Shown in pieces: positions 303 through 55,127 of a DNA stretch of 64,000 nucleotides. A program made the position numbers and the translations under genes. Within the stretch, counting starts at the first letter, position 1. Each line of letters opens with the position of its first letter. The notes beneath the pieces were generated by a model, which was given only the letters and a program-made list of their open reading frames with translations, was not told the origin of the DNA and did no database searches. Source of the DNA: a virus (taxonomy: Duplodnaviria > Caudoviricetes); IMG/VR virus record IMGVR_UViG_3300013947_000027, positions 1 through 64,000 of that record. One strand, 5' to 3'.

Positions 303-3300
303 TTAGTCAACTCCTTTCAAGTACTTTCTGACTGTTGTAGCAGAGATGCCAAGCTGTTCAGCAATCTCAGCAATAGTGTTACCATTAGCACTCAGGCTCT
401 TAATACGATTAGCTTTAGCAGTGCTGATTGTTTTAGTGTCGCGAGGCGTTGCACGCTGACGAAGTTCATCAATGTCAGCATTAGCGAGGATGCGCTTAAG
501 TTTATTCTCAGTGATGGCACCAGCTTGAATAGCTTCCCATTCTCTATCACTAATCTTGATGTTACGATCACGACGAGAGACGGCGCCAACTTCTTGACGA
601 TACTTGGACATGGCCCTCTGGCTTGCCTTTCTAACGTCGCTCTTTTCCATCTCTCTGCCTTCATCAGCGGCTTTCTGCTTCATAGCAGCGACCTCGGCAT
701 TAGCAAGACGACCAGCTTGTCTCTCACGAACACTATTCTTTTCCGCCTCGTTAAGGCGAACCATAAGGGAGTCTACTTCTTTCTGGTACACTTTAGTGGC
801 AGAGGGATCATGCTTAAGATTACCAGTGGCAAGCATCTCTTTACGAGCCTGATTAGCAAGAGCTTTCATGCTATTAGCATAGTCGGCATAGATTAGCTCC
901 ATCGGATGCTGTGCTGCGGATACAAGTTCACGGGCATCCTTAGCCTCGGCCATATTAGTAGTCCACTGGGTCCTAGTCCTAACATTATAGGAGATATCCC
1001 CCGCCTTGTTCTTATAAGATACGGTCCCATCCTCATTGAATGACCGGACCGGCTTGTACTTTTCAGAAGCCACGGGGTCAGAGGGGTCATAGGTGATCTT
1101 CTTACCCTCGGTAGTCCTAATGGTTACGATACCCGTGTTCTTATCCCTCTTACTGTCCACATAATACAGGTCATCCGCCTTGGCCAATTTATATGACTGT
1201 TCACCAGTTTCAGGATCAATAGTTGCCTGACCTCTACGCCTATCGACCTGGAGCTTACCCTTAGCTCTAGAGATGATTGTGCCTGCCCCTCCCCCCTTCA
1301 GGGTGCCATCAGGTCTAACCGTCACCTGGTACTTATCCTTAAGGGCCTGGATGTTATTCTCTACCTCACTGCGCTTATAGTCCAGCTTATGCTTCTCGGC
1401 ATCGATAACCACCATGCTATGTCTAACAGCGCGTGCGATCTCATCATCAGTAGCTCCGCCAGACAAGGTCATGTCAGTAATAAGATTAGAAATGACCCCC
1501 ATTTGCATCTGAGTATCATGCTTGGTCATGATCTTAACTTTCTCACCGCGAGAATTAACTCTTTCGCCGTCCTTGCCAGGCATGGTTCCATATTCAACTT
1601 TGGCGTCGAATCCTTTAAGCTCTTTAAGATATGGCGAGCGTTCGATCTTGATCTTGCCATAGTCAGTAGGAATGCACATGACAGTATCGCCGTCAAAGTC
1701 TGCGCCAGACAGCTGATCAGCAACACGCTTAGTGATACCAACGGCATCGTTAATATCGGTGCCAATCATTTTCTTAGCGTTAGAATTCTTATTGTTTACA
1801 GTAAGAACAGGGATTTCGAAAATGCCAGCATGAGGATATCGAATAAGAGCAAGCTTAGTACCATTAGGATAATCAGGAGCATAGATCTCTGTATCCTTCA
1901 TAAAATTCATCGGAATAATAGCATGGTACTTCTGTCCAGGAAGGGCTGCTGCTTTGAGGTTTACGGCTGCACCATCGCAGTCGTCAGCAAAAGATTTGAG
2001 GAGGTGCTTCTTAATTGTTGGGTTATTAACTTCACAAATGCGATTGTATTCTTCGTAGCGATCGGCTGCTGCAAGACCAAGCTGACGGCGTGCCAAATCC
2101 TTAGACTGTTTAGAAAGGAACTGAGAAGGAAGGGCATCCGCCCATTCAGACCAGTCGCCTTCAGAAGACTTCTTGTTAATAAGGCCAAGCTTTTCTTCGC
2201 CAGTCTTGGGATCCTTGTACCAATACTGGCCACCTTTATCAGCATCCTTAATAAGAGCGCCGAAAGGATTCTCGGGGTCATCTTTCTTGATAGGTTTAAG
2301 AACTGTATTGTCTTTGGGGCCGATAGCAGGTACACCTTTATGCTTATTGGTGTTAAACATTACATCGACACCCTTGGGAAGGTCATCAGAATATACTGCC
2401 ATACCCTTGAGATAATGGGTTCCATCAACAAGAATACGAACCTGAGCATATTTATCGCCATTCAGATCCAGATCAGTACAGCCTCTACGAATTTCGATCA
2501 GACCATCCTTCTCGTCGCCAGTGATTCCATCAGGGCCTTTCTCATCCGCATAGCGAATTTTAAGTCTCTTAGAATCAAGGCTCGCAGGATATGTAAATTT
2601 CTTCTTGAATGAGTCAGTACCTTCCTGATACTTATAATCTTCGATAGTATGAATCTCGTCGAAGCTATAAATGTCTTTATGCTTGGCTCCAGGAGGGCAC
2701 AGAATCATCTGTGTGGTGTAATTACCACGGTTGGTAGGTTGTTCTACTCGGCCCTGGAAAACGCCGTAGCCCTCAGATTCGAGCGCGTAGAGGGCCTGGT
2801 CAAGCTTAGTTCTACTAATACCAAGTTTCGATTCAGCTCCGTCGCCGACATTAATATACCGCTCGACATCCTTGCCAACATCAATCATGCCTTTCTTAGC
2901 GACCTGCTCTTTCAGGAAATCAGCAGTCTGCTTTGCAGCAAGCATCTTAGCTTCAGATCTAGGATCAAGGAGAGAACGAACTGTAGACTCTCGAAGACCC
3001 ATTTCTCGACCAATAGCGCTGTAGCCAAGACCTTTGTCTTTAAGATTCTTAGCCTTAACAACCTGCTGCTCTCTACGAGTGTACTCAGCCCAGTATTTCT
3101 CATTACGATACTCTTCGAGTTTCATACCGAAATGCTTCTGAACCTCTTCAGCAGTTTCTTTAAATCCCTCTTCTTTCTTCAGTCGGTCAATGCGAGTGAG
3201 AAAGTCGCCGTCATGCTGATAAGGATCTTCGCCTGACCCATACGGCCACCGGCCAGAATGATACTTAGTGCCATAGTGCATGAGATAATCAGTGTCGCCA

Positions 3301-3338
3301 TCAAGCACGGCACGCATTTCATCTACAATAGAACTCAC
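303..3338 (-). CDS. Single-polypeptide two-barrel (DPBB) RNA polymerase, YonO/cellular-RdRP-like, with N- and C-terminal HTH domains
   Basis: Catalytic GADFDGD preceded by LIRYP; QVR..LKG, GVISN and HS..VIDAEK resemble cellular RdRP-family motifs; HTH-like segments GLGYSAIGREMGLRESTVRSLL and GNTIAEIAEQLGISATTVRKYL. Confidence 0.85.
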   Translation of the reverse strand: MSSIVDEMRAVLDGDTDYLMHYGTKYHSGRWPYGSGEDPYQHDGDFLTRIDRLKKEEGFKETAEEVQKHFGMKLEEYRNEKYWAEYTRREQQVVKAKNLKDKGLGYSAIGREMGLRESTVRSLLDPRSEAKMLAAKQTADFLKEQVAKKGMIDVGKDVERYINVGDGAESKLGISRTKLDQALYALESEGYGVFQGRVEQPTNRGNYTTQMILCPPGAKHKDIYSFDEIHTIEDYKYQEGTDSFKKKFTYPASLDSKRLKIRYADEKGPDGITGDEKDGLIEIRRGCTDLDLNGDKYAQVRILVDGTHYLKGMAVYSDDLPKGVDVMFNTNKHKGVPAIGPKDNTVLKPIKKDDPENPFGALIKDADKGGQYWYKDPKTGEEKLGLINKKSSEGDWSEWADALPSQFLSKQSKDLARRQLGLAAADRYEEYNRICEVNNPTIKKHLLKSFADDCDGAAVNLKAAALPGQKYHAIIPMNFMKDTEIYAPDYPNGTKLALIRYPHAGIFEIPVLTVNNKNSNAKKMIGTDINDAVGITKRVADQLSGADFDGDTVMCIPTDYGKIKIERSPYLKELKGFDAKVEYGTMPGKDGERVNSRGEKVKIMTKHDTQMQMGVISNLITDMTLSGGATDDEIARAVRHSMVVIDAEKHKLDYKRSEVENNIQALKDKYQVTVRPDGTLKGGGAGTIISRAKGKLQVDRRRGQATIDPETGEQSYKLAKADDLYYVDSKRDKNTGIVTIRTTEGKKITYDPSDPVASEKYKPVRSFNEDGTVSYKNKAGDISYNVRTRTQWTTNMAEAKDARELVSAAQHPMELIYADYANSMKALANQARKEMLATGNLKHDPSATKVYQKEVDSLMVRLNEAEKNSVRERQAGRLANAEVAAMKQKAADEGREMEKSDVRKASQRAMSKYRQEVGAVSRRDRNIKISDREWEAIQAGAITENKLKRILANADIDELRQRATPRDTKTISTAKANRIKSLSANGNTIAEIAEQLGISATTVRKYLKGVD

Positions 3339-3341
3339 ACA

Positions 3342-3908
3342 TTACTCCTCCTCACGATCTAATTTTTCAAGCAACTTATTAAGATGCACGATCTTATCCA
3401 TAATTGGAACAATATCTTCCGCAGTAGGATTCCAGACAACGACTTCATCGCACTTGTAAACTCGCAATTCAATCTTAATGTCCGAAGGTTTAACCTTATA
3501 CTCCAAGCAGAATAAAGCAGTATATACTTCCAGCTGCTCCATATGAGATTCGATCTTTCCTACTTTTCCAGTCTTAAGATCATGAATTCTGAGCATGCCG
3601 TTTTTAAAACAAATAGCATCTGCAGTGCCAAAGAAACGATCGGAATAATATAGCACCACTTCGGTGTCCATGTTGTAGCCAATCGCATCGTTGACATATG
3701 CGCAAATAGTTCTCTTAGATTTAGGCTGCTTCAAGCCTAACTGAATAGTCTCCGCTGCCCACGCATGAAGCCGCGTTCCCATTTCAGCAGCTTTCTTATT
3801 GTTGTAGACTTCAATAACTTTTTCGTCGTCATATCTAAGCCAGCTAGATTGGGATGCAGTGAACGGGGCATGGAGGCCAGATAAATTTTTATGATCGTAG
3901 AATTTCAT
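3342..3908 (-). CDS. PD-(D/E)XK (Cas4/RecB-like) exonuclease
   Basis: GTRLH, FGTADAI, IHDLKTG, QLEVY motifs. Confidence 0.75.
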   Translation of the reverse strand: MKFYDHKNLSGLHAPFTASQSSWLRYDDEKVIEVYNNKKAAEMGTRLHAWAAETIQLGLKQPKSKRTICAYVNDAIGYNMDTEVVLYYSDRFFGTADAICFKNGMLRIHDLKTGKVGKIESHMEQLEVYTALFCLEYKVKPSDIKIELRVYKCDEVVVWNPTAEDIVPIMDKIVHLNKLLEKLDREEE

Positions 3909-4216
3909 TAGCGCCTCCGTTTACGTTTAAAAAATATGTCCAAATCTTCAAATACTTCATCACGATTCTCAGGAAATACAAACCGAGAGAACGACATCTT
4001 ATTAAGCTTATCGACGTAGTATTCTTGATTAGGTTGCTTGTGAGCGCCTCGTTCTTTTTTCATTTCAAGGATGGCCCACTTATCTTCATAGAGTAGAGTC
4101 CAGTCTGGAAAACCCTGAATATATGAGCTATCATTCTTCAAGGCAATGCATCCAGGATATCGTTCTTTCACTTCATCGATGAAATCTTTCTGAAACTTAC
4201 TTTCGAGCTTCGACAA
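3908..4216 (-). CDS. VRR-NUC-type endonuclease / resolvase
   Basis: ESKFQ..GFPD..LEMK..QPNQ pattern. Confidence 0.75.
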   Translation of the reverse strand: MSKLESKFQKDFIDEVKERYPGCIALKNDSSYIQGFPDWTLLYEDKWAILEMKKERGAHKQPNQEYYVDKLNKMSFSRFVFPENRDEVFEDLDIFFKRKRRR

Positions 4217-4250
4217 TAGTGAGCCCTCCTTTCTTTCAAATATCAGGTAA

Positions 4251-4294
4251 AAATAGAAGAGAAAGTGCTAAAAAGGCACATTCTCTTTCTCCCC
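4251..4294 (-). terminator. Hairpin plus U-rich tract immediately after a motif copy (empty cassette or attenuator)
   Basis: AGAAAGAGAATGTGC-CTTTTTA-GCACTTTCTCTTCT-ATTTTT. Confidence 0.6.
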
Positions 4295-4357
4295 TATAAA
4301 AGGGAGTGATTATACCGCGAAAACGCGCTCCCTTTATTGATAGCAAATATATGTAGT

Positions 4358-4840
4358 TTATGCGTACTCAAAGTGGTACCCTTTGACACTAGATCGATTT
4401 CCTGCAAAATATCCAGAAATGTCATTTTGACAGCAGTCAATGGCTCTTGCACAGGATCTGATGGAAGGATATGATTCACCAGTCTCAACCACTCTGATAG
4501 CAATCTGTCTCGGAGGAACTCTTGTACCTCTATCGAACGCCGCTAAAATAGTTTCGCTTCGAGTACGCCATTCGAGATTATCAACACAGCAATCCGAACG
4601 GTCACCATTTTTGTAACTGATATCCAGTCCAGGACATTCACCTAGAAATGTTTCGGCAATAACCTTAGCAACTTTGACTGTGTATTGTTTTCCGTTCTTC
4701 CTAAGGCATACGAGCTTATAACCATGTTCATTGGTGAAAGTTTTGAGAACCCGCTGCGTCTTAATATTCATGATTCGCCCATCAGTACTACCGTCATAGC
4801 TGGGGAAGTTTCTTAGAGGTTTCCAAGTCTCCATATACAA
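4358..4840 (-). CDS. NUMOD4-HNH-NUMOD1 homing endonuclease-like protein with a degenerate active site
   Basis: WKPL..FPSY..STDGRI N-terminus; ISYKNGDRSDCCVDNLEW in place of VNHIDGNKLNNRADNLEW. Confidence 0.75.
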   Translation of the reverse strand: MYMETWKPLRNFPSYDGSTDGRIMNIKTQRVLKTFTNEHGYKLVCLRKNGKQYTVKVAKVIAETFLGECPGLDISYKNGDRSDCCVDNLEWRTRSETILAAFDRGTRVPPRQIAIRVVETGESYPSIRSCARAIDCCQNDISGYFAGNRSSVKGYHFEYA

Positions 4841-4950
4841 TCTGCTCCTTTCGAATATGTAATGCTAAAACATAATGCTGTCGAGTGAGTGCTGAACTTA
4901 CCGAGAAGTCAAAAAGAAGAGTCAGCGTTTAAGCTAACCCTTCTTTTAAG

Positions 4951-5157
4951 TCAATCAGTAAATGCGCTAATAATACCTTTAGCAATAATCACCGGCCACG
5001 ATATAATACTAAGTACTGCTCCAACGCAACATCCGAACACCCAAGCGAAATTGTCATATTCATTAAACGCCGCTGGGAGATCGGGATTATGTTTCGCAAT
5101 CATAAGCATCATAGCACAACCGATAAGAATATAAATTGCCAAGATAGTTAAAAACAT
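4951..5157 (-). CDS. Small membrane protein (cassette payload)
   Basis: Two hydrophobic segments; motif and RBS upstream, terminator at 4911-4947. Confidence 0.7.
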   Translation of the reverse strand: MFLTILAIYILIGCAMMLMIAKHNPDLPAAFNEYDNFAWVFGCCVGAVLSIISWPVIIAKGIISAFTD

Positions 5158-5192
5158 TTAAATCACTCTCCTCATAAAACAGAGTGTTTTTA

Positions 5193-5237
5193 TCGCGAAT
5201 AAAAAAGAAGAGCCAGCGTTTAAGTCAGCCCTTCTTT
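5193..5237 (-). repeat. 45-bp terminator/promoter junction, identical to 10487-10531 and similar to 4911-4947
   Basis: tcgcgaataaaaaagaagagccagcgtttaagtcagcccttcttt is present at both places. Confidence 0.9.
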
Positions 5238-5247
5238 CGATTAATAT

Positions 5248-5388
5248 TCACTTCCTGAGAGTAATTCTGAATAATGCATGGACCATCTGAAAGAAATTTC
5301 CATGGCAAGCAAGATTGCTAGAAATAGTTTTACCTCTGCAACTGTTGATATGCCAGTCTCTCTTCTCAAATAAACGTCCGATCTTCAT
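5248..5388 (-). CDS. 46-aa microprotein (cassette payload)
   Basis: AAAGGAG RBS; MKIGRLFEKRDWHINSCRGK...; lies between motif 5439 and a terminator. Confidence 0.65.
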   Translation of the reverse strand: MKIGRLFEKRDWHINSCRGKTISSNLACHGNFFQMVHALFRITLRK

Positions 5389-5495
5389 AAATTAGATCTC
5401 CTTTCGATTTAGTTTCTCATATAAGAAAGTGTTTTTGACGCGAAACAAAATATAAAAGAAAGAGGCTCTGTTTCCAGAACCCCTAACTTTTAGAA

Positions 5496-5738
5496 TTACT
5501 TCCAACCAAGGAAAAATTGCTTTTCATTCCACTTTCGCTTAAACCGCAAATAATTAAAGAACGATGTCTTAAATCTAAGTGCATATGCAGAACCTTTAAT
5601 TTCATCAGTAAGTTTATCCATGATCTTGACATCATCAAGACGCACAAGATATACTCCCTCGCCAAATTTTTTTCCAGCATAGCGCTTAAAGAAATCCTCG
5701 CTCTCTTTAGTGTGCTTAAACAACCAAGTGAATTTCAT
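5496..5738 (-). CDS. Hypothetical protein (cassette payload)
   Basis: Motif 5788, AAGGAG RBS, terminator at about 5455-5490. Confidence 0.7.
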   Translation of the reverse strand: MKFTWLFKHTKESEDFFKRYAGKKFGEGVYLVRLDDVKIMDKLTDEIKGSAYALRFKTSFFNYLRFKRKWNEKQFFLGWK

Positions 5739-5814
5739 AATTTGTTCTCCTTTTCATAAAGTTTTCCATAAAACAGAGTGTTTTTATCGCGAGACTGAGA
5801 TCACTTTAAAAATA

Positions 5815-6276
5815 TCAATAACCGAGGAGATCACTTGGTGTACAGTCGAGGGCATCGCAAATTTGAAGGAATGCATCAGTACTTGGGAACCTACGATTTC
5901 TAATGCATCGTCTAAACTCAGCATCCATACCATATTCATTGAATTGAAAATTATCCAATTCAAAACCACGTTTCGACAACTCACGCATAAAATAATCAAC
6001 AACACGTTTGGTATCGATGCCTTGATTAAACAGTTCAGTCCTTGGCTCAACATCGACAAATTTGTAACCAAGTAGCTCGTTCACAGTACACTGGAACAGT
6101 TCTGCAATCAAGATAAGACTATCAAGTCTTGGCAGTTTCTTCAGTTTCAAACAAGACCTGAGAAACGCTTCTGAAGTATCTGCATAATATGCAACATACC
6201 AGAGCCGCAAATCATGTTCATCTGCGCCCTGCTTTAAACGTTCAGCAAAATATTCTCTAATCTCATATTTAATCAT
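5815..6276 (-). CDS. Tandem XRE-like HTH DNA-binding protein
   Basis: Two internal repeats ending IAELFQCTVNELLG and ICDALDCTPSDLLG. Confidence 0.7.
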   Translation of the reverse strand: MIKYEIREYFAERLKQGADEHDLRLWYVAYYADTSEAFLRSCLKLKKLPRLDSLILIAELFQCTVNELLGYKFVDVEPRTELFNQGIDTKRVVDYFMRELSKRGFELDNFQFNEYGMDAEFRRCIRNRRFPSTDAFLQICDALDCTPSDLLGY

Positions 6277-6298
6277 TTAGTCTTCTCCTTTCTAAATA

Positions 6299-6712
6299 TT
6301 AACCAATTAAATCCATTACGGTACAGTCAAACGCACGCGAAAGCTTCGTTAATGCATAACCCGATGGTGTGGTGTTACCTTTTAGGTAATTATTAATCGC
6401 GCCTTTGCTTAAACCGGTATACTCAGCCAAGGCTTGCTGAGTAATACGTTTTGTGTTCATGTATTCTGCTAATCGATCAGCGAATATCTCACGCCATTCT
6501 TTTTCGCTAAAAGAATCGTCGTGATGCATAGGACGAGTTTCGACATTTCGAACAGTTTTACTCATGCTATGAAAATCATAGAGTTTTCCGTCATTCGTTT
6601 CTACTCGAATTCCCATGTCGCCTTTGGGCCGCCAATCTTTTATTCCATTTGCCAAGTATGGGTGATACTCTTTGAATTGCTCTAAAATTTCTTCGTAATG
6701 TTTTACGTTCAT
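6299..6712 (-). CDS. XRE-family HTH regulator
   Basis: ITQQALAEYTGLSKGAINNYLKG..TPS. Confidence 0.8.
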   Translation of the reverse strand: MNVKHYEEILEQFKEYHPYLANGIKDWRPKGDMGIRVETNDGKLYDFHSMSKTVRNVETRPMHHDDSFSEKEWREIFADRLAEYMNTKRITQQALAEYTGLSKGAINNYLKGNTTPSGYALTKLSRAFDCTVMDLIG

Positions 6713-6741
6713 ATATAGTCTCCTTTTTGTTAAAAATTCGC

Positions 6742-6883
6742 TGTGGCCAAAAGTGTGGCCATTTTGTGTGTAAAGTTATTTAATTTCTTCGGTCATAATA
6801 CTGAACATTTATAATATTCTAATTCATTATTATGACCACACTTTTAAAATAAATAAGGGGTAAAAAAGTGGGCTTTTGGCCAC
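6742..6883. repeat. Nested inverted repeats in an AT-rich non-coding region (probable replication origin)
   Basis: tgtggccaaaag (6742-6753) pairs with cttttggccaca (6872-6883); inner ggtcataata (6791) pairs with tattatgacc (6828). Confidence 0.6.
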
Positions 6884-6932
6884 AAAACACTTAAAATAGC
6901 TCAAAATAGCTCCAAAAACCGCAAAATAACCT

Positions 6933-7220
6933 ATTTAATGTATTACAATAATTCATCAAGCCCCTAAAATCCAAATCCTTTCAGTTCATTATTCTGAACC
7001 AGAATTCGCGATTTTGCCTCCGAATTATCGTATTACAATAATTAAAAACGGGCATTTAATGTATTACATTAATTCAAAATAGCCAAAAATCGATTTAATG
7101 TAATACAATAAATAGGCTAAAATGATTTAATGTAATACAATAAATAGGCTAAAATGAATTAATGTAATACAATAAATCACCTAGAAAACACTAAAAATGA
7201 ATTAATGTAATACAATAAAT
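6933..7220. repeat. Seven copies of a near-palindromic 21-mer ATTTAATGTA(A/T)TACAATAAAT (iteron/operator array)
   Basis: Copies at about 6933, 7024, 7054, 7093, 7125, 7157, 7200; 32-bp period between 7093 and 7157. Confidence 0.85.
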
Positions 7221-7228
7221 CGACTATT

Positions 7229-7444
7229 TTATAGCTTTCTGAACTTGAAGTTGTAGAACATTCTCACCGCTTTTCGAATAATATCCGAAATATTGATGTC
7301 CATTTCCACCTCAATATGTCGAATCATCGCCTCCTCTTCTTCATCAAATCTTATCGTGTGTGTACTTTTACGTGTGTTATTGAGAGGTGGTCTCCCTCTC
7401 CCACGTTTCATTCTATCCTCCAAACCAGTCACCTCCGTAACCAA
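7229..7444 (-). CDS. AT-hook plus ribbon-helix-helix (CopG-like) DNA-binding protein
   Basis: KRGRGRP followed by HTIRF..ISDIIRKAV. Confidence 0.7.
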   Translation of the reverse strand: MVTEVTGLEDRMKRGRGRPPLNNTRKSTHTIRFDEEEEAMIRHIEVEMDINISDIIRKAVRMFYNFKFRKL

Positions 7445-7629
7445 GTATGAACATTATACATATTATCCAAAGCTTCTCTCATAATATCATTCCTACTCAT
7501 GCCAATCTTCTTAGTAAGAAAGTCCAATTTATCCGCCTGTTCCTGTGTAAGATTCACCTTCACCGGCTGGTCATACTTAGGAGTTTCCTTCTTAGGTCTG
7601 CCTCTCCCACGTTTGATTTCAGTGCTCAT
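7429..7629 (-). CDS. AT-hook plus ribbon-helix-helix (CopG-like) DNA-binding protein
   Basis: KRGRGRP followed by VKVNLT..LDFLT..SRNDIMREAL. Confidence 0.75.
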   Translation of the reverse strand: MSTEIKRGRGRPKKETPKYDQPVKVNLTQEQADKLDFLTKKIGMSRNDIMREALDNMYNVHTWLRR

Positions 7630-7661
7630 TCAATCTCATCCTTTCAAAAAAAAATAAAAAA

Positions 7662-7754
7662 ATAAAAGAAGAAATGTTAGTCTTCTAGATATACATCTAG
7701 ATCTCCTTGCTAGTTTCCTAGGAACGGAATCGAACCGTTTCTTCATTTCTTCTC
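7662..7754 (-). ncRNA. Structured small RNA A (four-way junction with a tRNA T-arm)
   Basis: 10-bp closing stem AGAAGAAATG/CATTTCTTCT; AACGG-TTCGATT-CCGTT; CTAG-GAAA-CTAG; TCTAGAT-GTAT-ATCTAGA; U-tract; starts at motif 7775. Confidence 0.7.
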
Positions 7755-7838
7755 ATAATAGGCAATGTAATTTTCGCGAACCTAAAATATCAAAAAGAAA
7801 GAGGCTCTGAAAACAGAACCTCTAACTTCGTCGAGTTG

Positions 7839-8027
7839 TTAAAGATCGAACATGCTCTTTGTGTCTTGGACACCTGCTACATAAGCCTTATCTTTAAGAA
7901 TTATACATCCAATACTAGCTACAGCACCGATGATAGCACCGGCGGTAACAGTCAGGATATCTTTCTTTGAGATATACTTGCTGCCAAACTGGGTCCCGTC
8001 CTTGAACACAATTACAGATTTCTTCAT
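7839..8027 (-). CDS. Small membrane protein (cassette payload)
   Basis: One TM segment; motif 8062; GGAGG RBS. Confidence 0.7.
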   Translation of the reverse strand: MKKSVIVFKDGTQFGSKYISKKDILTVTAGAIIGAVASIGCIILKDKAYVAGVQDTKSMFDL

Positions 8028-8104
8028 AATTCAACACCTCCATAAAAGCAAGTGTTATTATCGCGAACTAATGGCATCAAAAAGAAGCGCCCTTGTCATA
8101 GGAC

Positions 8105-8338
8105 TCAACTCAAATCATCAAGTAAGTCATCATCAAACTCCGCCTTAACACACGGCGAATCAAAAACCTTCACCCAAAATCTCTTCCAATATGCAACCAT
8201 AACCTCTTCAACAGCAATCTTACGTGACAATTTTTTAACCTGTGTCACATCACATAAATATCTCGCAGCCTCGTTGCGATCCATGCCATAACTCATAAGT
8301 TTCTTAATTGTAGTCTTACGTGTCATTTTTATTCTCAA
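8105..8338 (-). CDS. Hypothetical protein
   Basis: ORF followed by a terminator-like hairpin. Confidence 0.55.
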   Translation of the reverse strand: MRIKMTRKTTIKKLMSYGMDRNEAARYLCDVTQVKKLSRKIAVEEVMVAYWKRFWVKVFDSPCVKAEFDDDLLDDLS

Positions 8339-8416
8339 AACCCCTTTCAGAATATAGTTTCGTCTTGACCAACGGCTTTTCGTCTATGATCAAATCTAAA
8401 AAGAGAAGAGTCCTTG

Positions 8417-8659
8417 TTAGGACCCCTCTCCAACATCAAAGTTTATGAAATCTACAACATCTTCAAATTTTACCATATCAGGATTCCAATCTTTGACCCA
8501 CTGCGGCTTATCTGCATTTAGTAATTCATCAGCATACAGATAACCCTCAGTTTTAAATTTACTAACTAGATCATCTCTTCCAAAAAATTCCAAAAACGCA
8601 ATAAGCTTCTCAGTAGTATCAAGCTGATAAATCCATTTTGGTAATACATGATAATGCAT
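8417..8659 (-). CDS. Hypothetical protein (cassette payload)
   Basis: Motif 8696; start moved to the ATG after AAGGAG. Confidence 0.65.
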   Translation of the reverse strand: MHYHVLPKWIYQLDTTEKLIAFLEFFGRDDLVSKFKTEGYLYADELLNADKPQWVKDWNPDMVKFEDVVDFINFDVGEGS

Positions 8660-8741
8660 AAATATCATCTCCTTCATATAAGAGAATGTTTTCTACGCGA
8701 AAATTAGGAACCCCTGTTATAGGGCTCCTAAGTCTTGAGGG

Positions 8742-8933
8742 TCAACATACCTCACAAGTTTCAAAAATATAATCTGCCTCGTAATCGCTTACTCCGAAGA
8801 TTTGTCCGCTGGCGAGATCCTTAAAGTAGTTAAGCTTCCCACGCCAAGCCTTACAAGCTCCATCGTCGCCAACTCTGTCAATAAGATCCCCAATACAGTC
8901 CATTTCTCCGAGATATACTAATACGTCGCGCAT
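8742..8933 (-). CDS. Hypothetical protein (cassette payload)
   Basis: Variant motif 8994; AAGGAG then MRDVLV. Confidence 0.65.
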   Translation of the reverse strand: MRDVLVYLGEMDCIGDLIDRVGDDGACKAWRGKLNYFKDLASGQIFGVSDYEADYIFETCEVC

Positions 8934-9079
8934 AATAAATACTCCTTCCAAAATATAAAGGTTTAATCTCCTCATAATAGAGCGTGTAAAATTAGCGAGT
9001 TTCAATGCATTCAACGATTTCTTATTGTGTTCAAAACCAAAAAAAAGAAGACCCAGTGTTTCCACCAGGTCTATCTTCG

Positions 9080-9253: not shown

Positions 9254-9349
9254 AATAATCGCCTCCATAATATAGAATGTTTTTCTCGCGAGTGCATCAT
9301 AAGTGTAACGTAACAATACATATCCAAAACAAAGAGGAAAGGGTATGTT

Positions 9350-10324: not shown

Positions 10325-10380
10325 AAGTCAACACTCCTTTCTTCTCATATAAGAGAGTGTTTTTTCTCGCGAACCAAAAA

Positions 10381-45909: not shown

Positions 45910-45980
45910 AGTTTTTAACTCCTTTTAGAAATAATAATTATTGGTATTTCTGCCATAATAGGGCCTGTAAATTTCGCGAA

Positions 45981-46969: not shown

Positions 46970-47015
46970 GATAGAACACACTCCTTTCCATAATAGTGGC
47001 TGTGAATCTCGCGAA

Positions 47016-47774
47016 CTAGTATTCGAGGTAGCCTATGACTGGTTCCATTGGAAAATGAATAATCGTGCATTCTAATCCTTGACTTTCTTCAGATTCCTCG
47101 TCAATGACTATCTCCTCGTAGTCAAATTCGATCCATGGATGCCAGTACATTTCCTCGATCTGACCGCAAGCCCATCCTACATTTTCATACTCTGGCTTCT
47201 GCTCCAAACCAAGAAGTTCGTAATATTCGTTGAGACAAACAGCGCCATTAACGTACATAGCTCTATTAGCCTCATACTGAGCCCACATGACAGTCTCTTT
47301 GGTTGATTCGAAGTATCTTCCTGAATAGAAATCGTAGAATAGTTCTTTGTTATTGTCAGATAAATCTACGTCACCCGCATACTTGTCTTTAGCGATCTCG
47401 CCACGAATGTTCTTGCCAGCTTCTTCTCCATACAATTCGTCCGTTTTCTTCTTATACTCCTTATAAGAATTGTCAAGTAACGCATACGCACTCATAAGAG
47501 ACGCCTGCTGACGTTTACTAATAACGTTAGATCCGAATATGCACACAATTGTAGCAGCTCCAGTAATTATAGATGGGATGTAAACTGGGCCGGCTATTTT
47601 GATTTTTTCCCATTTGGTTAATTCTTCTCCTTTCTTCTCTTTTGCATCTTCAAGTAACGATAATGCTTTCGGTGTTTCTTTGGCTACCATAACTGCTGTA
47701 GTTACTACTCCAGTTGCACCTATACAAGTTAATATTGTAGATGCGTTACGTTTAATGAATTGTTGTAAATCCAT
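47016..47774 (-). CDS. DUF6353-like membrane-anchored protein, paralogue 3
   Basis: NASTILT..G..TPKA..YIP..LNEYY..GW; start revised to MDLQQF. Confidence 0.7.
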   Translation of the reverse strand: MDLQQFIKRNASTILTCIGATGVVTTAVMVAKETPKALSLLEDAKEKKGEELTKWEKIKIAGPVYIPSIITGAATIVCIFGSNVISKRQQASLMSAYALLDNSYKEYKKKTDELYGEEAGKNIRGEIAKDKYAGDVDLSDNNKELFYDFYSGRYFESTKETVMWAQYEANRAMYVNGAVCLNEYYELLGLEQKPEYENVGWACGQIEEMYWHPWIEFDYEEIVIDEESEESQGLECTIIHFPMEPVIGYLEY

Positions 47775-47812
47775 TTCTTTCCACTCCTCGGGTTTAGGGT
47801 ATGTGTCAAAAA

Positions 47813-48006
47813 TAAAAGAGAGAATCAATCATTCCACTCGAAGGACGCCGATATTTCCCTCAGGCTCATGGTCAATCTTTCGATTGAGCTCATCTTTTCA
47901 GATCTAGCCTCGTTCATAATCTTTCGATTATTATCTCCTTCCCGATGCGGTACCAATGATTGTTGGCCCTCCAACTTCACTGCCCTTTCGAGTGTTATAT
48001 TCTCTC
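47813..48006 (-). ncRNA. About 190-nt highly structured RNA E (three GAAA tetraloops, possible pseudoknot)
   Basis: GAGAGAAT/ATTCTCTC; CACTCGA/TCGAGTG; AGGGC/GTCCT; ATAATC-GAAA-GATTAT; ATCT-GAAA-AGAT; TCAATC-GAAA-GATTGA; AGGCT/AGCCT; motif 48027. Confidence 0.8.
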
Positions 48007-48068
48007 ATATTAGGGCCTGTAAATTTCGCGAACCGTTGATTAGGCGAAAATAAAAAAGAAGGAGCTCA

Positions 48069-48257: not shown

Positions 48258-48343
48258 TTTGAATTCCTCCTTTAATATTCTTCCATAATAGGAGCTGTAA
48301 ATCTCGCGAAAAAAATAAAGAGAAGGAGTCCCTGTTATAGGAC

Positions 48344-48517: not shown

Positions 48518-48563
48518 TATTAATCAACTCCTTCCATAATAGGAGCTGTTAATGTCGCGAATT

Positions 48564-49038: not shown

Positions 49039-49107
49039 TATATCATCCTCCTTGATTCTACATTCCGTTCCATAATAGGGCCTGTGAATCTCGCGAAATG
49101 CAAAATT

Positions 49108-49250
49108 AAAAGAAAGAGAGGCGGCTCACCTGTTAACCATTAAGTCACTCCGTACCTCGATAGCCGTCAGCTAAACCTTCAAGGGTGACACCTTATTTCA
49201 ACGTCGCCGTTTGCACATTTATAACGGTTGTTTCCGTAACGTCTCTTTCT
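49108..49250 (-). ncRNA. About 140-nt small RNA F
   Basis: 9-bp closing stem AGAAAGAGA/TCTCTTTCT plus U-tract; ACGG-AAACAA-CCGT; GTCAC/GTGAC; variant motif 49271; no RBS-led ORF. Confidence 0.6.
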
Positions 49251-49335
49251 ATAATAGGGGCTGCTAATATCGTGAATTGAATGCTCGGAGCAAAAAAGAA
49301 GAGGCCATGTTTCCACAGCCTCTGTCTTTCGTACG

Positions 49336-49695: not shown

Positions 49696-49748
49696 ATCGA
49701 TTCACTCCTTTAATTTCGTCGAACTTATACGTCCCATAATAGAGCCTG

Positions 49749-50006
49749 TTAATCGCGCGAAAGATAGTTCTTATCCACAACTTTGAGCATAACAACATTC
49801 TTCTTAGAAATAGAATCAATTGTAGCTCCTTGAAGTTCCAAGAACGGTCTCGGCGGCTCGTCGGGTTCTGAGCGATCAATTCTGAGATAGCCAACTGATT
49901 GTTCCTCGACTGTTTTCCTCATTCGTCCCATGCTAATAAAGATACCGACGAATACTCCGATGATTGCTCCGACCAGCAGAGCGATTCCAATTGCCAAATA
50001 CTCCAT
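49749..50006 (-). CDS. Membrane-anchored small protein
   Basis: N-terminal TM; G.LRID.S. Confidence 0.65.
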   Translation of the reverse strand: MEYLAIGIALLVGAIIGVFVGIFISMGRMRKTVEEQSVGYLRIDRSEPDEPPRPFLELQGATIDSISKKNVVMLKVVDKNYLSRD

Positions 50007-50344: not shown

Positions 50345-50466
50345 AGTAAACACACTCCTTTCTTCTCATAATATGGAGTGTTAATTTCGCGAATTGTAAC
50401 TAAAAAAGAAAAGGGAATCTGTTAAGACTCCCTAATCTTTGGTTAGTGGTTGAATTTATGCTAATT

Positions 50467-50547: not shown

Positions 50548-50633
50548 AGTTAACTCCTCCATATGTAAAATTTAGTTTTTAAATTCCAACCATTTCTTCC
50601 CATAATATGGAGTGTTAATTTCGCGAATTCAGC

Positions 50634-51440: not shown

Positions 51441-51792
51441 TTGCATTCAACGCAATGGCTAAAATAAGAAAATCTCAAGTGCTTCTTCATCTGTAAGTTC
51501 AAGTACGTCTTTCATCTGAATCGCTTCTCCGATTGTTATCTTTAGTGGAGCTCGGAGCTTACGATATAACGTTGGACCAGTCATCCCAATAATTTCAGCT
51601 AACTGCTCCACATTCATTTCTCGTTCAACGATTTTTGCTTTAAGTTTGTTCATGTTCATTTATGTCACCTCTTTCCGTTGCGTTCCGTGCAACACATACA
51701 AGATAGCATCGTTTTACTTTTTATGTCAATATTTTTTTGCGTAAAATGCAACGTGTTTTATTCTCAGTTTTAAATAATTTGCATACTTGCAA
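51441..51792. promoter_or_regulatory. Immunity switch: TTGC-N7-GCAA operators and divergent sigmaA-type promoters
   Basis: Operators at 51441, 51678, 51737 (N7) and 51779 (N6); minus-strand TTGACA-N18-TATCTT (51729-51700); plus-strand TGnTATACT near 51799-51807. Confidence 0.7.
51459..51659 (-). CDS. Cro-like HTH repressor
   Basis: KLKAKIVE..VEQLAEIIGM..TLYRKL; divergent from cI. Confidence 0.85.
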   Translation of the reverse strand: MNMNKLKAKIVEREMNVEQLAEIIGMTGPTLYRKLRAPLKITIGEAIQMKDVLELTDEEALEIFLF

Positions 51793-51827: not shown

Positions 51828-52394
51828 GTGCATGATATGAACATAGGAAATCGAATAAAAGAAAGAAGAAAAGAACTAAATATGTCAGTTGAGGAATTAG
51901 CTAAAAGACTGAATAAAAATCGAACAACCGTTTATCGCTATGAGAAAGGAGATATAGAAAACCTTCCAATCGACATTCTTGATCCACTAGCAAAAGCATT
52001 AGAGACAACTCCGGCGTACTTAATGGGTTGGGATAATAAGCCAAATAAAGACACTGCTACAATTGGCGAGTTGCTTAAGATGATGAGAACTAATCGAAAC
52101 ATGACTATCGAGGAATATTCACGAGAGATAGGTATATCTGCTGAGGATTTACGTATGTATGAATCCGGAGAAAAATACATACCTCTTTCTGTAATCCACA
52201 CAATTGCGGAATACTATCGTCTTTCACTGGAGAGTGTCAGAGTAGGTAACCCTGAGGTTAATAAAGAAGGAAATATTCGCCTCGAACGCTTTAAGACTTG
52301 GGCTGAAAATTTTGGTGACCTGGAACTTACTGATGAGGAGCATGACAAGATTGTTGAGTACACGAAATTCCTAATCTACATAAGAGAAAAATAA
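51828..52394 (+). CDS. CI-like immunity repressor with two XRE HTH domains
   Basis: IGNRIKERRKEL.MS.EELA..YRYEKG; second HTH IGELLK..YESG. Confidence 0.88.
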   Translation: MHDMNIGNRIKERRKELNMSVEELAKRLNKNRTTVYRYEKGDIENLPIDILDPLAKALETTPAYLMGWDNKPNKDTATIGELLKMMRTNRNMTIEEYSREIGISAEDLRMYESGEKYIPLSVIHTIAEYYRLSLESVRVGNPEVNKEGNIRLERFKTWAENFGDLELTDEEHDKIVEYTKFLIYIREK

Positions 52395-52521
52395 AAGAGA
52401 ATGTGTAGTCTTGTACAGTTCATTTCCTGTCCGAGAGTCGCTCGGTCTTATTTCTTATATGACGGCATCTCAGCCGACGGGACTTTCACCCGTAACTCAT
52501 TACTGCTACTTCATTTTCTCC
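52393..52521 (-). ncRNA. Structured small RNA G, antisense in the cI-integrase intergenic region
   Basis: Imperfect closing stem; ACGGG-TGAAAGT-CCCGT; CGGC-TGAGAT-GCCG; CCGAG-N5-CTCGG; ACAG-N8-CTGT; U-tract; motif 52542. Confidence 0.7.
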
Positions 52522-52610
52522 ATAATAGAAGCTGTTATTTACGCGAAGGGAGGTGATGCCTATGTAATCACAGCGCCGCAACGAGAGTAAACTAACAGGA
52601 GGAATAGAAA

Positions 52611-54191
52611 GTGACAATATTCGAAAAGAACGGGATAATCGATAACTCTATGCCTACCCGCATGGATAAATATGTGATTTATTTGCGCAAATCTCGTGCA
52701 GATGTAGAAGCCGAGAAACTAGGCGAAGGAGAAACCTTAGCTCGGCATAAAAAGATACTTACAGAGCTTGCTGCAAGAAAAGGCTTGTATATCGAGAAAA
52801 TATACGAAGAAATTGTCTCTGGGGAAACCATCGAGGCTAGACCTGAGATCCAGAAGATGATCAAAGAATGCTATGAGGGCAAATATAAAGGAATAATTAT
52901 TGTCGAGGTAACTCGTCTGTCTCGTGGTAACCAGGGTGATGCTCAGACTATTCTAGATTGCTTGAAATATTCGAATCGTAATAATGGGGTGTTAGTAATC
53001 ACACCGACTAAAACATACGACGTTGCTCACTCTCAAGAAGATGAAGAATACATGGAGTTTGAATTGTTTATGTCTCGTAGAGAATATAAGATGATTCAGA
53101 AGCGTATGGATCGTGGTCGTAAGCAAGCAGTTGTAGAAGGAAATTTTATGGGAAGCTACAGACCATATGGATATGATATTGTCAAAACTAAAACAAGCAG
53201 AACACTTATACCCAATGAAAATGAAGCACCGATTGTTAAACAAATGTTTGACTGGTCTGCTAATGAAAATTTGACACCATATAAGATTGCTCAGCGATTA
53301 GAGAATATGGGTATTCCTACTTATTATGGAGATGGCGAATGGTCGAAAGATACTGTTAAAACTATTTTGACGAATCCTACGTATATGGGGAAAGTTAAGT
53401 GGAACGATCGTATGCAAATCAAAACTATGGTTGACGGAGAGCTTGTAACATCAAGACCTCGATCGAATCATACTGATCACTACATGGAATATGATGGTAA
53501 ACATAAGAAGTATGCACTAATAGACGAAGAGACTTTTAATAAAGTAAGATCTCGATTCGGAGTTGATAGAACAAAGTCAGGGCTTAAGTTAACAAATATA
53601 TTGGCTGGAATATTCAGGTGCAAAAACTGTGGACGTGCAATGGGCTATCAATCATATAAACAACGTAAAACGCCAACTGCTCCAAGATACTTACATGCCG
53701 AGTCTCAAAAATGTAAAGTGAAATCAGTTGTAGCCGATGATGTTTATAAAGCTCTGATTCATGCTCTTAAAATGTATATAGAAGACTTCGAGGTTAAACT
53801 TGACAATCTTCCAGAGACAAATGAAAATGAAATAGATAAGCAGATAGAGATATTGAATCGAGAGACAGCTAAAATAAAAAGGAAGCTATCTAAACTCTTT
53901 GATTCCTGGGAGGATGAGGCTATTACAGACAACGAATTTGTCGAACGTAAAGCAGTGCATAATAATCGTATTGAGAAAATTAAGCAACAGATTGAAGATT
54001 TGGAATACTCAATTCCAGAAAAAGAAGAATATCAAGAAAAGATCATTCTTCTATCTGAAGCTCTTAAAGCTATCAGAGACGACTCATTGGATGCTGATAT
54101 CAAGAACGAGTATCTTAAGAGAATCATTGATACAATAGAGTTTAGTAGAGAAAATAACTCGGAATTTATACTTGATATAACCCTACACTAA
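52611..54191 (+). CDS. Large serine recombinase (integrase)
   Basis: YLRKS catalytic motif; RLSRG; PYGY; TNPTYMG; Zn-ribbon C..C; coiled coil. Confidence 0.93.
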   Translation: MTIFEKNGIIDNSMPTRMDKYVIYLRKSRADVEAEKLGEGETLARHKKILTELAARKGLYIEKIYEEIVSGETIEARPEIQKMIKECYEGKYKGIIIVEVTRLSRGNQGDAQTILDCLKYSNRNNGVLVITPTKTYDVAHSQEDEEYMEFELFMSRREYKMIQKRMDRGRKQAVVEGNFMGSYRPYGYDIVKTKTSRTLIPNENEAPIVKQMFDWSANENLTPYKIAQRLENMGIPTYYGDGEWSKDTVKTILTNPTYMGKVKWNDRMQIKTMVDGELVTSRPRSNHTDHYMEYDGKHKKYALIDEETFNKVRSRFGVDRTKSGLKLTNILAGIFRCKNCGRAMGYQSYKQRKTPTAPRYLHAESQKCKVKSVVADDVYKALIHALKMYIEDFEVKLDNLPETNENEIDKQIEILNRETAKIKRKLSKLFDSWEDEAITDNEFVERKAVHNNRIEKIKQQIEDLEYSIPEKEEYQEKIILLSEALKAIRDDSLDADIKNEYLKRIIDTIEFSRENNSEFILDITLH

Positions 54192-54544: not shown

Positions 54545-54798
54545 GAATAATTTGGAGAGATAGTTGCACACCTAGAGAATATGAACCAATCAAATACAGA
54601 AATATTTACATTTTTGGATCTCCTGACGGTTGGGAAGTAAATATAAAAGAAGATGATAATCTATATAAAAATCATTATTGCGCTAAAAATGCTATAGATG
54701 AATATTATGGAGATTTCGGTGAGCATGGTGATAAAAAGCGTAAGTCATATGGAATCCAAATCATAGGAGCAAAAGATAGCACGAGGATGAGTTTATGA
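54541..54798 (+). CDS. Hypothetical protein, tandem paralogue B
   Basis: MRIIWRDS..GW..DDNLY..CA.NAIDE. Confidence 0.7.
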   Translation: MRIIWRDSCTPREYEPIKYRNIYIFGSPDGWEVNIKEDDNLYKNHYCAKNAIDEYYGDFGEHGDKKRKSYGIQIIGAKDSTRMSL

Positions 54799-54917
54799 AT
54801 AAGAAACTAGAAAAGCAAATACAAGAATATTTGAAGCAAACGCAGTACTGCAAAACAAAGGAACGAATACTGAGACAAAAAGAAGAGGCCCTGTCGTAAT
54901 TGACAGAGCCTTTTCCT

Positions 54918-55085
54918 TTACTTCTTCGAAAACTTGGCCTCGATATTCTTCTTAGCTTTCTTTGCTGTCGTTACAACCGCATTGCGAGCTTCAGGCACGA
55001 GTGCGACTACCGTAACAATCGGCAGTACAATCTGCGTAAGCCATAAGCGAGCTTCCCGACTAGCTTCAATATGCTTATATATCAT
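54918..55085 (-). CDS. Small membrane protein (cassette payload)
   Basis: Motif 55122, AAGGAGG RBS, terminator at about 54877-54912. Confidence 0.7.
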   Translation of the reverse strand: MIYKHIEASREARLWLTQIVLPIVTVVALVPEARNAVVTTAKKAKKNIEAKFSKK

Positions 55086-55127
55086 AACAATTCCTCCTTC
55101 CATTAAAGGAGGTGTTAAATTCGCGAA

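Follow-up and report, generated by a model that had tools for sequence, protein, structure and literature searches.

The first 64 kb (64,000 nt; here the window) of the Caudoviricetes record IMGVR_UViG_3300013947_000027, a 102,032-nt gut phage record rated complete by CheckV, contains 33 copies of a 27-bp motif, TTCGCG-N6-ACA-N5-TATTATG, and a gene (coordinates 303–3338, minus strand) for a 1011-aa protein that is predicted to be a two-barrel RNA polymerase (RNAP). Judged from sequence comparisons, the motif is probably the cognate promoter of this phage-encoded enzyme, with transcription starting at motif position 27. The evidence comes from the distribution of the motif, its position relative to ribosome-binding sites and RNA helices, and its association with the polymerase gene across phages of two bacterial phyla.

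Exact matches to the motif number 15, all on the minus strand, and none are expected from 100 shuffles; at up to three mismatches there are 33 matches, again all on the minus strand, against a shuffle expectation of 0.68±0.79. With a position weight matrix (PWM) built from the copies, 32 true copies score 33–48 and the rest of the 102,032-nt record scores at most 12.4 on either strand. One match at 25152–25178 lies within an open reading frame (ORF), falls below the PWM threshold and probably arose by chance. The true total is also 33, consisting of 32 ungapped copies and one (10346–10373) with a 7-nt instead of a 6-nt spacer. A PWM scan of the whole record found no copy on the plus strand and none in the ~47 kb at 55,128–102,032, which contain the holin, tail and structural genes. 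Most copies have a hairpin and T-run upstream, and an ORF led by a Shine-Dalgarno sequence (SD) or an ORF-less structured RNA downstream. The first-pass annotation of this DNA had claimed 33 minus-strand copies that avoid the tail operon and stand before ORFs with ribosome-binding sites or structured RNAs; the count and the absence are confirmed, and the placement applies to most copies. The copies are as follows, with + positions counted from motif position 27 and copies named below by their higher coordinate:

4295–4321, minus strand: copy before the nuclease-polymerase operon, deviant (TTTTATA, A at position 27); PWM 33.1
5173–5199, minus strand: copy with SD from +2 and a terminator immediately upstream; PWM 44.3
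5418–5444, minus strand: copy; PWM 38.1
5767–5793, minus strand: copy; PWM 41.0
7754–7780, minus strand: copy before an ORF-less structured RNA with an 11-bp closing helix from +1 and an abutting U-tract; PWM 44.4
8041–8067, minus strand: copy with SD GGAGGTG at +1 to +7; PWM 38.6
8675–8701, minus strand: copy with SD at +2 to +7; PWM 35.4
8973–8999, minus strand: copy; PWM 35.9
9266–9292, minus strand: copy with SD at +1 to +5; PWM 37.2
9731–9757, minus strand: copy; PWM 40.9
10038–10064, minus strand: copy; PWM 35.9
10346–10373, minus strand: copy with the 7-nt spacer, missed by the ungapped pattern; PWM 12.4 in shifted register
10467–10493, minus strand: copy before an ORF-less structured RNA with a 9-bp closing helix from +1; PWM 48.1
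10797–10823, minus strand: copy; PWM 38.1
11197–11223, minus strand: copy; PWM 39.4
11664–11690, minus strand: copy; PWM 33.0
15126–15152, minus strand: copy; PWM 46.7
20965–20991, minus strand: copy with a 13-bp hairpin and U-tract from +1, from folding; PWM 45.2
26888–26914, minus strand: copy before an ORF-less RNA with a closing helix from +2; PWM 44.1
31272–31298, minus strand: copy with a 13-bp hairpin and U-tract from +1, from folding; PWM 42.3
36305–36331, minus strand: copy before a structured leader (helix from +1) and a tRNA-Met/Gln/Leu cluster; PWM 43.0
45954–45980, minus strand: copy; PWM 42.1
46989–47015, minus strand: copy with SD at +4 to +9; PWM 41.4
48006–48032, minus strand: copy before an ORF-less RNA of ~190 nt with an 8-bp closing helix from +1 and an abutting U-tract; PWM 43.9
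48284–48310, minus strand: copy; PWM 43.5
48535–48561, minus strand: copy with SD at +3 to +8; PWM 47.5
49071–49097, minus strand: copy; PWM 44.4
49250–49276, minus strand: copy (TTCACG, AGCA, A at position 27) before an ORF-less RNA with a helix from +1; PWM 33.7
49735–49761, minus strand: copy; PWM 42.3
50367–50393, minus strand: copy with SD at +8 and the T-run of a terminator immediately upstream; PWM 48.2
50601–50627, minus strand: copy of the first cassette past the cro-like operon; PWM 47.8
52521–52547, minus strand: copy between the repressor-like and integrase genes, before an ORF-less RNA, from folding; PWM 40.6
55101–55127, minus strand: copy right after the lysis/late module, the first in the direction of transcription; PWM 40.1

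Columns T2, C3, C5, C14, A15, T21, A25 and T26 are invariant in the 32 ungapped copies. G27 is present in 30 of them and positions 28–30 are purines in 31–32, and the information content is unbroken from position 1 to about 32 (−26 to +5). Terminator-like hairpins in the 12-kb array occur at three times the shuffle frequency and are mostly on the minus strand. An Rfam scan reported only tRNAs, with no promoter-driven RNA matching a known family. Some promoters recur around unrelated payloads: the 27-mers at 50601–50627 and 50367–50393 are identical, and so are the promoters and upstream terminator flanks at 5173–5224 and 10467–10518, which is consistent with cassette exchange through recombination at promoters.

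The position of the start is indicated by the downstream sequences. The SD begins within +1 to +9 of the G after TATTAT in eight units, of which at least three (5199, 8067 and 50393) have a terminator immediately upstream, so that the ribosome-binding site could not be supplied through read-through. In seven of ten ORF-less payloads or leaders G27 is the first base of the closing helix, which is 8–13 bp long and extends on its 3′ strand up to the U-tract; this is in line with the earlier observation of a closing stem at the G of TATTATG, and the helix start is unchanged if the folded sequence includes a further 20 nt upstream. Operon leader helices also start at +1 in five other lineages. Because of these SD positions and helix boundaries, transcription most likely starts at motif position 27, abutting TATTAT, and with +1 at this base the motif comprises a contiguous 26-bp recognition region followed by a G-R-R-R start.

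The 1011-aa protein has N-terminal helix-turn-helix (HTH) motifs at residues ~50–125, an SGADFDGD loop at 544–551 and a C-terminal HTH at ~985–1008. The DFDGD catalytic motif, reported for this ORF in the first-pass annotation, is present at 547–551. SGADFDGD and R500-x-P502, the latter 45 residues before D547, are invariant in an alignment of 64 homologues (42–55% identity), the loop is invariant or nearly so across 19 phage lineages too, and K311, D325 and K348 are invariant in the N-terminal barrel region. An AlphaFold2 model from the 64-member alignment has a predicted local distance difference test score (pLDDT) of 87.4 and a predicted template modelling score (pTM) of 0.82. Its top Foldseek matches, with a probability of 1.00, are QDE-1 (E 4e-8), plant RDR2, P74-26 gp62 and P23-45 gp64, and cellular and viral beta-prime/Rpb1 chains rank next. 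The conserved loop, these fold matches and the confident model identify the protein as a two-barrel RNAP by fold. Sequence and profile searches against PDB sequences returned only HTH proteins and a weak touch on P23-45 gp96. All 16 Pfam matches are to HTH families at the C-terminal end (971–1008), where the cut-offs of Sigma70_r4_2, HTH_23, GerE and others are passed, and the T7-type family (RNA_pol) is not among them. Terminal HTH domains had been claimed; the C-terminal one is thus substantiated, and the N-terminal ones appear only as weak profile matches and in a published description.

Homologues were found by tblastn in 250 phage records, including Lactococcus phages P1046, P118 and P162 and phages of Gordonia, Arthrobacter, Streptomyces, Rhodococcus and Microbacterium (34–43% identity over 87–100% of the length), and clustering of the family at 50% identity (E≤0.001) gives at least 2,153 clusters, compared with at least 8,000 at 90%. 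A near-invariant peptide, H-Y-G-x4-S-G-R-Y-P-W-G-S-G, lies at residues 13–43 in a segment that is predicted to be disordered (pLDDT below 50), and is kept from Lactococcus to Streptomyces phages; the peptide might act as a signal for packaging, for ejection or for binding a partner. The phage 1706 protein stands for one of the five YonO-like families listed by Ruprich-Robert and Thuriaux (PMC2919709). Koert et al. described a signature protein with HTH motifs at both ends and a DxDGD loop in a supercluster of Streptomyces BI, Arthrobacter AM/AU/AW, Gordonia DJ, Rhodococcus CC and Microbacterium EL phages, joined by Lactococcus 1706-like phages and Faecalibacterium phage FP_oengus; among the ~ten genes common to the supercluster, the polymerase is the sole DNA-binding or transcription protein (bioRxiv 10.1101/842583). 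Neither paper mentions a promoter.

The motif accompanies the polymerase gene in these phages. A small expectation-maximization (EM) motif finder first recovered the window motif from the unannotated sequence, and EM or degenerate pattern scans were then applied to relatives; k-mer enrichment with a maximal-order Markov model, unlike the EM finder, recovered no motifs. Eleven IMG/VR loci encoding homologues were scanned with the window PWM, and all those at 94–47% RNAP identity carry motif copies on the polymerase strand. In named phages the motif takes the following forms:

FP_oengus (Faecalibacterium): rCGCG-AAAAAW-nCA-N5-CTTTATGG
Gordonia phage Gravy: TCGCAGAAATTACACGTCCTATAATGAGACCCC, ten strong copies
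Lactococcus phages P1046 and 1706: TTCACAWGTTTTACAYAYRCTATAGTAGAAAG
Arthrobacter phage Circum: motif in register
Streptomyces phage DrGrey: motif in register
Rhodococcus phage Pepy6: motif in register
Microbacterium phage Camille, Curtobacterium phage Serenabean and Arthrobacter phages Stayer, Brunswick, Zeina, Qui (25 copies) and Loretta: all copies on the forward strand, with reversed-pattern controls at zero
Streptomyces phage RavenPuff: four copies at one mismatch, three of them with ACG or ACC for ACA

RavenPuff had appeared under a strict pattern to have a polymerase with no motif, and was dropped as such a case once its one-mismatch copies were found. When the lineages are aligned on the start purine, C3, C5, (A)CA13–15, T26 and R27 are common to all at the same positions. 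The polymerases of the aligned lineages are only 34–57% identical, and their hosts belong to two phyla. The hosts of the RNAP-bearing lineages examined, all of which have the motif in register, are Gordonia, Rhodococcus, Arthrobacter, Streptomyces, Microbacterium, Curtobacterium, Lactococcus and Faecalibacterium. A 44-nt Gravy copy compared with 50,697 phage records gave 716 matches in 115 records, every one of them on the plus strand and none outside the genera with RNAP-bearing phages (Gordonia 55, Streptomyces 42, Arthrobacter 13, Rhodococcus 4, Caudovirus 1). Compared by host label, the 44-mer counts equal the RNAP tblastn counts for G. rubripertincta (36), G. terrae 3612 (15) and S. griseus (18). 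The co-occurrence check proposed with the original observation thus gives a positive result: motif and RNAP accompany each other in phages whose hosts span two bacterial phyla.

In four bacterial assemblies (2.0–6.1 Mb) with related RNAP genes every motif match lies in short same-strand clusters, so it does not constitute a promoter class of these bacteria; in two of the assemblies (G006 and G007) the matches share contig and strand with an RNAP gene, and the reversed-pattern control gives 0–1 matches. An exact-pattern scan of bacterial genome contigs, which with 16 specified bases has ~280 chance matches expected, gave 120 loci of which 82 are below the PWM cut-off, and the 15 multi-copy loci are the informative ones. 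Seven of the ten assemblies checked for the polymerase were positive, and the motif loci of the other three are on draft contigs of 24–89 kb, so that these do not count as cases of a motif with no polymerase. Contigs with dense motif arrays (L109, L131 and L136) are also binned in metagenome-assembled genomes labelled Bacteroidaceae, Collinsella and Saccharibacteria, and are probably mis-binned phage contigs; Clostridia are more credible hosts, as represented by a Lachnospiraceae isolate (G005), Christensenella (G006) and Oscillospiraceae (G007).

In the mechanism proposed here, the enzyme would recognise ~27 bp upstream of +1, with TTCGCG at −26 to −21, ACA at −14 to −12 and TATTAT at −6 to −1, and would initiate into a purine-rich G-R-R-R start with no need for a host sigma factor. 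It would serve ~33 promoter-payload-terminator units that encode small, often membrane, proteins, structured RNAs, tRNAs and replication genes, with no such promoter in the structural/lysis module. The enzyme may arrive packaged in the virion and be injected, and its own operon would come last, beside the late genes, behind a motif copy and a leader terminator. This end of the genome contains the following features:

1–299, minus strand: small conserved ORF directly after the polymerase gene, running off the record end (phrog_4303, E 2.7e-25)
303–3338, minus strand: predicted single-chain two-barrel RNA polymerase, 1011 aa, of the phage 1706 orf75/YonO-like family (alignment, AlphaFold2, Foldseek)
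3342–3908, minus strand: Cas4/RecB-like PD-(D/E)XK exonuclease, upstream of and co-transcribed with the polymerase gene (Pfam DUF2800, PDDEXK_1)
4249–4294, minus strand: leader hairpin and U-tract just past the operon promoter, a candidate attenuator (from folding)

The small ORF after the polymerase gene is also found in Gravy, Circum, DrGrey, Pepy6, 1706, FP_oengus, L159 and L161, the exonuclease-polymerase gene order is identical in all annotated relatives, and all relatives examined have a motif copy ~0.9–1 kb ahead of the polymerase gene. The operon leader terminator begins at ~+6 in the window and in L161, but at +1 in FP_oengus, L013, L016, L159 and L160; it could be an attenuator or antitermination switch that times polymerase expression, and might also time the promoter-less late genes downstream. 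Three window promoters (4321, 20991 and 31298) run into a hairpin and U-tract (4249–4294, 20925–20964 and 31232–31271), which starts at +1 for 20991 and 31298 and at about +6 for 4321 and would give a transcript of ~31–47 nt ahead of the downstream genes. The leader terminators of relatives are at about 27700 in L021 and at about 9000–9200 in L013, L016, L159, L160 and L161. The operon promoter of the window is preceded by a second CGCG box (GCGCGTTTTCGCG, 4322–4335), present at the same place in L012, L013, L014 and L018, and at the operon promoter of L016 AAAAACACGCGT is present twice; the extra box could be an added binding site for autoregulation.

Repeats occur near the polymerase and primase-polymerase genes of some relatives. 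In L160, about seven tandem GGGTCTATATTTAG copies, preceded by units containing ATTGATATTTT, lie downstream of the polymerase gene at 13300–13420, between its operon and the terminase genes, and could be a packaging or replication site. The gap before the primase-polymerase gene is full of short, iteron-like direct repeats (e.g. GGGCC(A)AAAATGGGCC and CACCTTTTT) in L159 (2650–3100), L161 (2850–3100) and L160 (3190–3470), which could mark an origin.

The polymerase operon is behind a copy of its own promoter, and therefore a first source of enzyme is needed; the candidate self-contained system of the first-pass annotation is in this respect not supported as fully self-contained. One candidate source, not raised in that annotation, is the virion. 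The original GenBank record of phage 1706 labels the homologue orf75 as 'structural protein' and its neighbours as 'unknown', and the note for Pepy6 gp106 repeats the 'structural protein' label. On the basis of this depositor's annotation, there is about an even chance that the polymerase is packaged in the virion and injected. If so, the motif units would be early genes, the location of the polymerase gene at the end of the early region beside the structural genes would make sense, and a late module with no motifs would be expected. More broadly, but more tentatively, a large family of virion-borne RNAPs with sigma-like HTH modules may read a 27-bp promoter kept in register between Actinomycetota and Bacillota, giving host-independent early transcription that would explain the spread across phyla and the host-atypical G+C content, with the leader terminator as an early-to-late switch; we regard this extended proposal as possible, somewhat short of likely.

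The most serious alternative, which we consider unlikely, is that the motif is a host sigma-A promoter appropriated by the phage, with TATWAT as the −10 element and the −35 element replaced by boxes (TCGCR and ACA) for a phage activator, as for T4 MotA/AsiA; the polymerase-like protein would then transcribe the promoter-less late module from one unrecognised promoter, as YonO does in SPbeta, or be no more than the DNA-binding activator. TATAAT and TATTAT are near the universal −10 consensus, the published note on Gordonia phage Vardy reads the motif as a sigma-70 promoter (PMC9671010), and YonO drives late genes as a single operon. The motif units also adjoin the lysogeny switch, the expected place of host-driven early genes, and host transcription would account for expression on induction with no virion enzyme. 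However, the motif differs from sigma-A geometry, as had been proposed: the distance from TTCGCG to TATTAT is 14 nt in every ungapped copy, not 17±1, and at the second base of the putative −10 element (position 22) 19 of the 32 copies have A, 12 have T and one has C, so that the critical A is missing in 13, and position 26 is T in all 32. A start 6–8 nt further downstream, as for sigma-A, would delete the ribosome-binding sites of eight units and most of each helix, removing 6–7 bp of the closing helices that begin at +1 in at least 12 independent RNAs. Positions +1 to +4 are also conserved purines. A sigma-70 scan of 1–12000 listed no site that uses a motif's TATTAT as its second hexamer, and no sigma-70 region 2 was detected at E≤1 in six frames of the phage in a search that matched 11 of 14 control genomes. 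The motif has one register in Actinomycetota and Bacillota phages, whose very different host polymerases a single activator must suit, and the supercluster-wide gene set contains no other DNA-binding protein.

It is very improbable that the motif is instead an operator, similar to stoperators, for a repressor or regulator, or a recombinational cassette junction. The many co-oriented intergenic copies are reminiscent of the stoperators in Cluster A and CA actinophages, and flanks recur around unrelated payloads (50627 has the same 27-mer as 50393, and 5199 and 10493 have identical upstream flanks). However, the copies are flanked by a terminator on one side and by an SD or RNA 5′ helix on the other, with a constant 0–2 nt to the first paired base, the ORF-less RNAs and tRNA cluster have no other promoter-like sequence, and the information content is continuous from −26 to +5. 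The motif is also carried by lytic relatives that have no repressor or integrase (Gravy and Circum by annotation tables, the DJ phage Vardy by its genome note). Least probable of all is an N4-like promoter in which the sequence from ACA to TATTATG pairs with the first transcribed bases and the enzyme recognises an extruded DNA hairpin: there is 6–7 bp of complementarity across TATTATG at 55127, 50393, 9757, 10493 and 5199, but just 3–4 bp in most copies, the excess over re-paired halves is marginal (mean best stem 4.03 against 3.76±0.15, reached by 86 of 2000 permutations) and comes largely from the pyrimidine-rich −11 to −7 facing the purine-rich +1 to +6, and the far upstream boxes are conserved with no pairing partner.

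The assignment of the motif to the phage polymerase has been weighed against several observations that count against it. The downstream element of the motif is near the sigma-A −10 element (TATAAT in actinophages). YonO, the only characterised relative, transcribes one late operon, whereas the late module here has no motifs. The co-occurrence is seen at the level of phage clusters and cannot alone single out the polymerase among cluster-specific genes. The motif copy ahead of the polymerase operon leaves the first enzyme on prophage induction unexplained; virion delivery, for which 'structural protein' is a depositor's label, leaves induction in temperate members (this phage and FP_oengus) equally unexplained. 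A rule proposed after ten lineages related the second residue after S-T-[VIL] in the C-terminal recognition helix to motif position 6 (G/A), with a charged residue corresponding to CGCG and an uncharged one to CGCA or CACA. It held in eight further phage lineages (18/18, with only 3–4 independent contrasts; sign test p 0.25), but failed in two of three metagenomic challenge lineages, with one promoter copy each, and was dropped as evidence. Of the idea that the enzyme reads the motif through its HTH domains, the link between enzyme and motif is thus supported by the comparative evidence, and the HTH part is not supported in this way. The N-terminal HTH has a near-invariant E-S-S/T-V-R helix and the C-terminal helix is more variable, and these are natural candidates for reading the conserved and variable boxes, respectively.

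The genome layout was derived from PHROG and Pfam matches and is described in the direction of transcription (minus strand). Structural, tail and holin genes (holin, 55585–55857) extend from 102,032 to 55,128 with no motif and are followed by the first copy at 55127. An integrase gene (52611–54191) and a repressor-like ORF (51828–52394) are on the opposite strand, with a motif-driven RNA between them, and a cro-like ORF (51459–51659) matches phrog_3. Ordinary sigma-A-like promoters had been reported at the cro/cI switch, and one candidate is present between the repressor-like and cro-like genes:

51700–51729, minus strand: sigma-A-like promoter candidate before the cro-like gene, TTGACA-18-TG-n-TATCTT (consensus scan 10/12 plus TG)

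A run of twelve motif copies spans 52547 to 45954, and is followed by a middle region of replication and nucleotide genes (primase-polymerase, helicase, NrdD and tRNAs) with scattered copies and by a second dense array of sixteen. The last segment consists of a motif copy, a nuclease, the Cas4-like exonuclease, the 1011-aa ORF and the small conserved ORF. The primase-polymerase (phrog_4210; 37202–41796, minus strand) is split into ORFs of 922 aa and 434 aa, which match profile positions 1–923 and 919–1293, and ORF 38490–39095 overlaps the junction; the split could reflect an inserted element or an intein-like interruption. A 123-nt Rfam tRNA match (35431–35553, minus strand; 41.8 bits), for which ARAGORN makes no call, adjoins the tRNA-Leu, Gln and Met genes and looks like a tRNA carrying a long insert. 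Three phrog_2152 paralogues (the DUF6353 family in relatives) are on the minus strand at 43718–44656, 45981–46769 and 47016–47828; two of them terminate exactly at the start of a motif copy, and FP_oengus likewise has three copies.

Phage polymerases with cognate promoters are already known (T7, N4, phiKZ/AR9 and P23-45), and the original caution about novelty proved well founded: predictions of the polymerase family date from 2010 and 2021, and the motif has one earlier sighting, in a Gordonia phage note. That note, on the Cluster DJ phage Vardy, describes a 50-bp motif in five intergenic copies among small membrane-protein genes (PMC9671010), which very probably is the Gravy/DJ form TCGCAGAAATTACACGTCCTATAATGAGACCCC. 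The motif was read there as a sigma-70 promoter, unlinked to the polymerase-like gene at the genome end and untraced beyond that genome (PMC9671010). Our literature search, limited to the papers available, found no paper that links the motif to the polymerase or reports the cross-phylum register, the start placement, or the combination with a possible virion enzyme and a conserved leader terminator, and none that describes a two-barrel RNAP with built-in HTH modules for promoter recognition. The present analysis bears on how minimal two-barrel RNAPs locate promoters when neither sigma nor general transcription factors are involved: it offers a concrete promoter consensus with a predicted +1 for a sister family of YonO that is far larger and has cultivable members infecting Lactococcus, Gordonia, Arthrobacter and Streptomyces. 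Should the 27-mer be read by the enzyme alone, the latter would represent a two-barrel RNAP that has promoter-recognising HTH modules of its own, and a compact orthogonal transcription unit for Gram-positive hosts, unrelated to T7. It would also offer an account of how the supercluster crosses phylum boundaries, and re-annotate hundreds of SEA-PHAGES 'helix-turn-helix DNA-binding' genes together with arrays of small membrane-protein genes.

Among known systems, YonO of SPbeta is the closest in kind: by family description, both are ~100 kDa phage polypeptides with a DxDGD loop and two double-psi barrels in the YonO-like assemblage. YonO is a processive RNAP whose promoter and need for accessory factors were left to be determined in the paper describing it. 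It drives one late operon from an undefined promoter, whereas here a consensus is present in 33 copies on non-structural genes, and the SPbeta yonN-yonK gap, where yonO starts, contains no match to the motif. The Thermus siphovirus P23-45 similarly encodes single-chain two-barrel RNAPs, and its gp64, together with P74-26 gp62, is among the best structural matches. Its gp96 is a virion RNAP fused to the tape measure protein and gp64 is a non-virion RNAP; their AT-rich and GC-rich promoters were recognised from motif conservation ahead of mapped starts, and across relatives the AT-rich gp96 motif co-occurs with the RNAP-tape measure fusion, a line of reasoning parallel to the present one. P23-45 differs in that there is no sequence homology past the catalytic loop, the promoter sequences are unlike, and its virion enzyme is part of the tape measure, not a separate 1011-aa protein. 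The P23-45 paper, as read here, names no HTH domains.

The T4 middle promoters resemble the motif in having a good −10-like hexamer and a phage-specific upstream box for the −35 element. They differ in that MotA/AsiA act with the host holoenzyme and the start is ~7 nt past the −10 element, whereas here it would follow directly after the hexamer. The non-virion RNAP of AR9/phiKZ is a two-barrel enzyme with a sigma-independent promoter, 5′-AACA-N6-T-A/G(+1), comparable to (A)ACA at −15 to −12 and T-G/A at −1/+1 here. The distance from ACA to the start is 4 nt longer in the window motif, the TTCGCG box has no AR9 counterpart, and the AR9 enzyme has five subunits and reads uracil-containing template-strand DNA. 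T7, T3 and SP6 share with the system proposed here a polymerase of one polypeptide, a contiguous promoter of ~23–27 bp ending at −1, a start with G and purines, many co-oriented promoter copies and hairpin-U terminators. T7 RNAP is a right-hand polymerase, as distinct from the predicted two-barrel fold of the 1011-aa protein; its gene is expressed early by the host enzyme, and it transcribes middle and late genes, whereas the late genes here have no such promoter.

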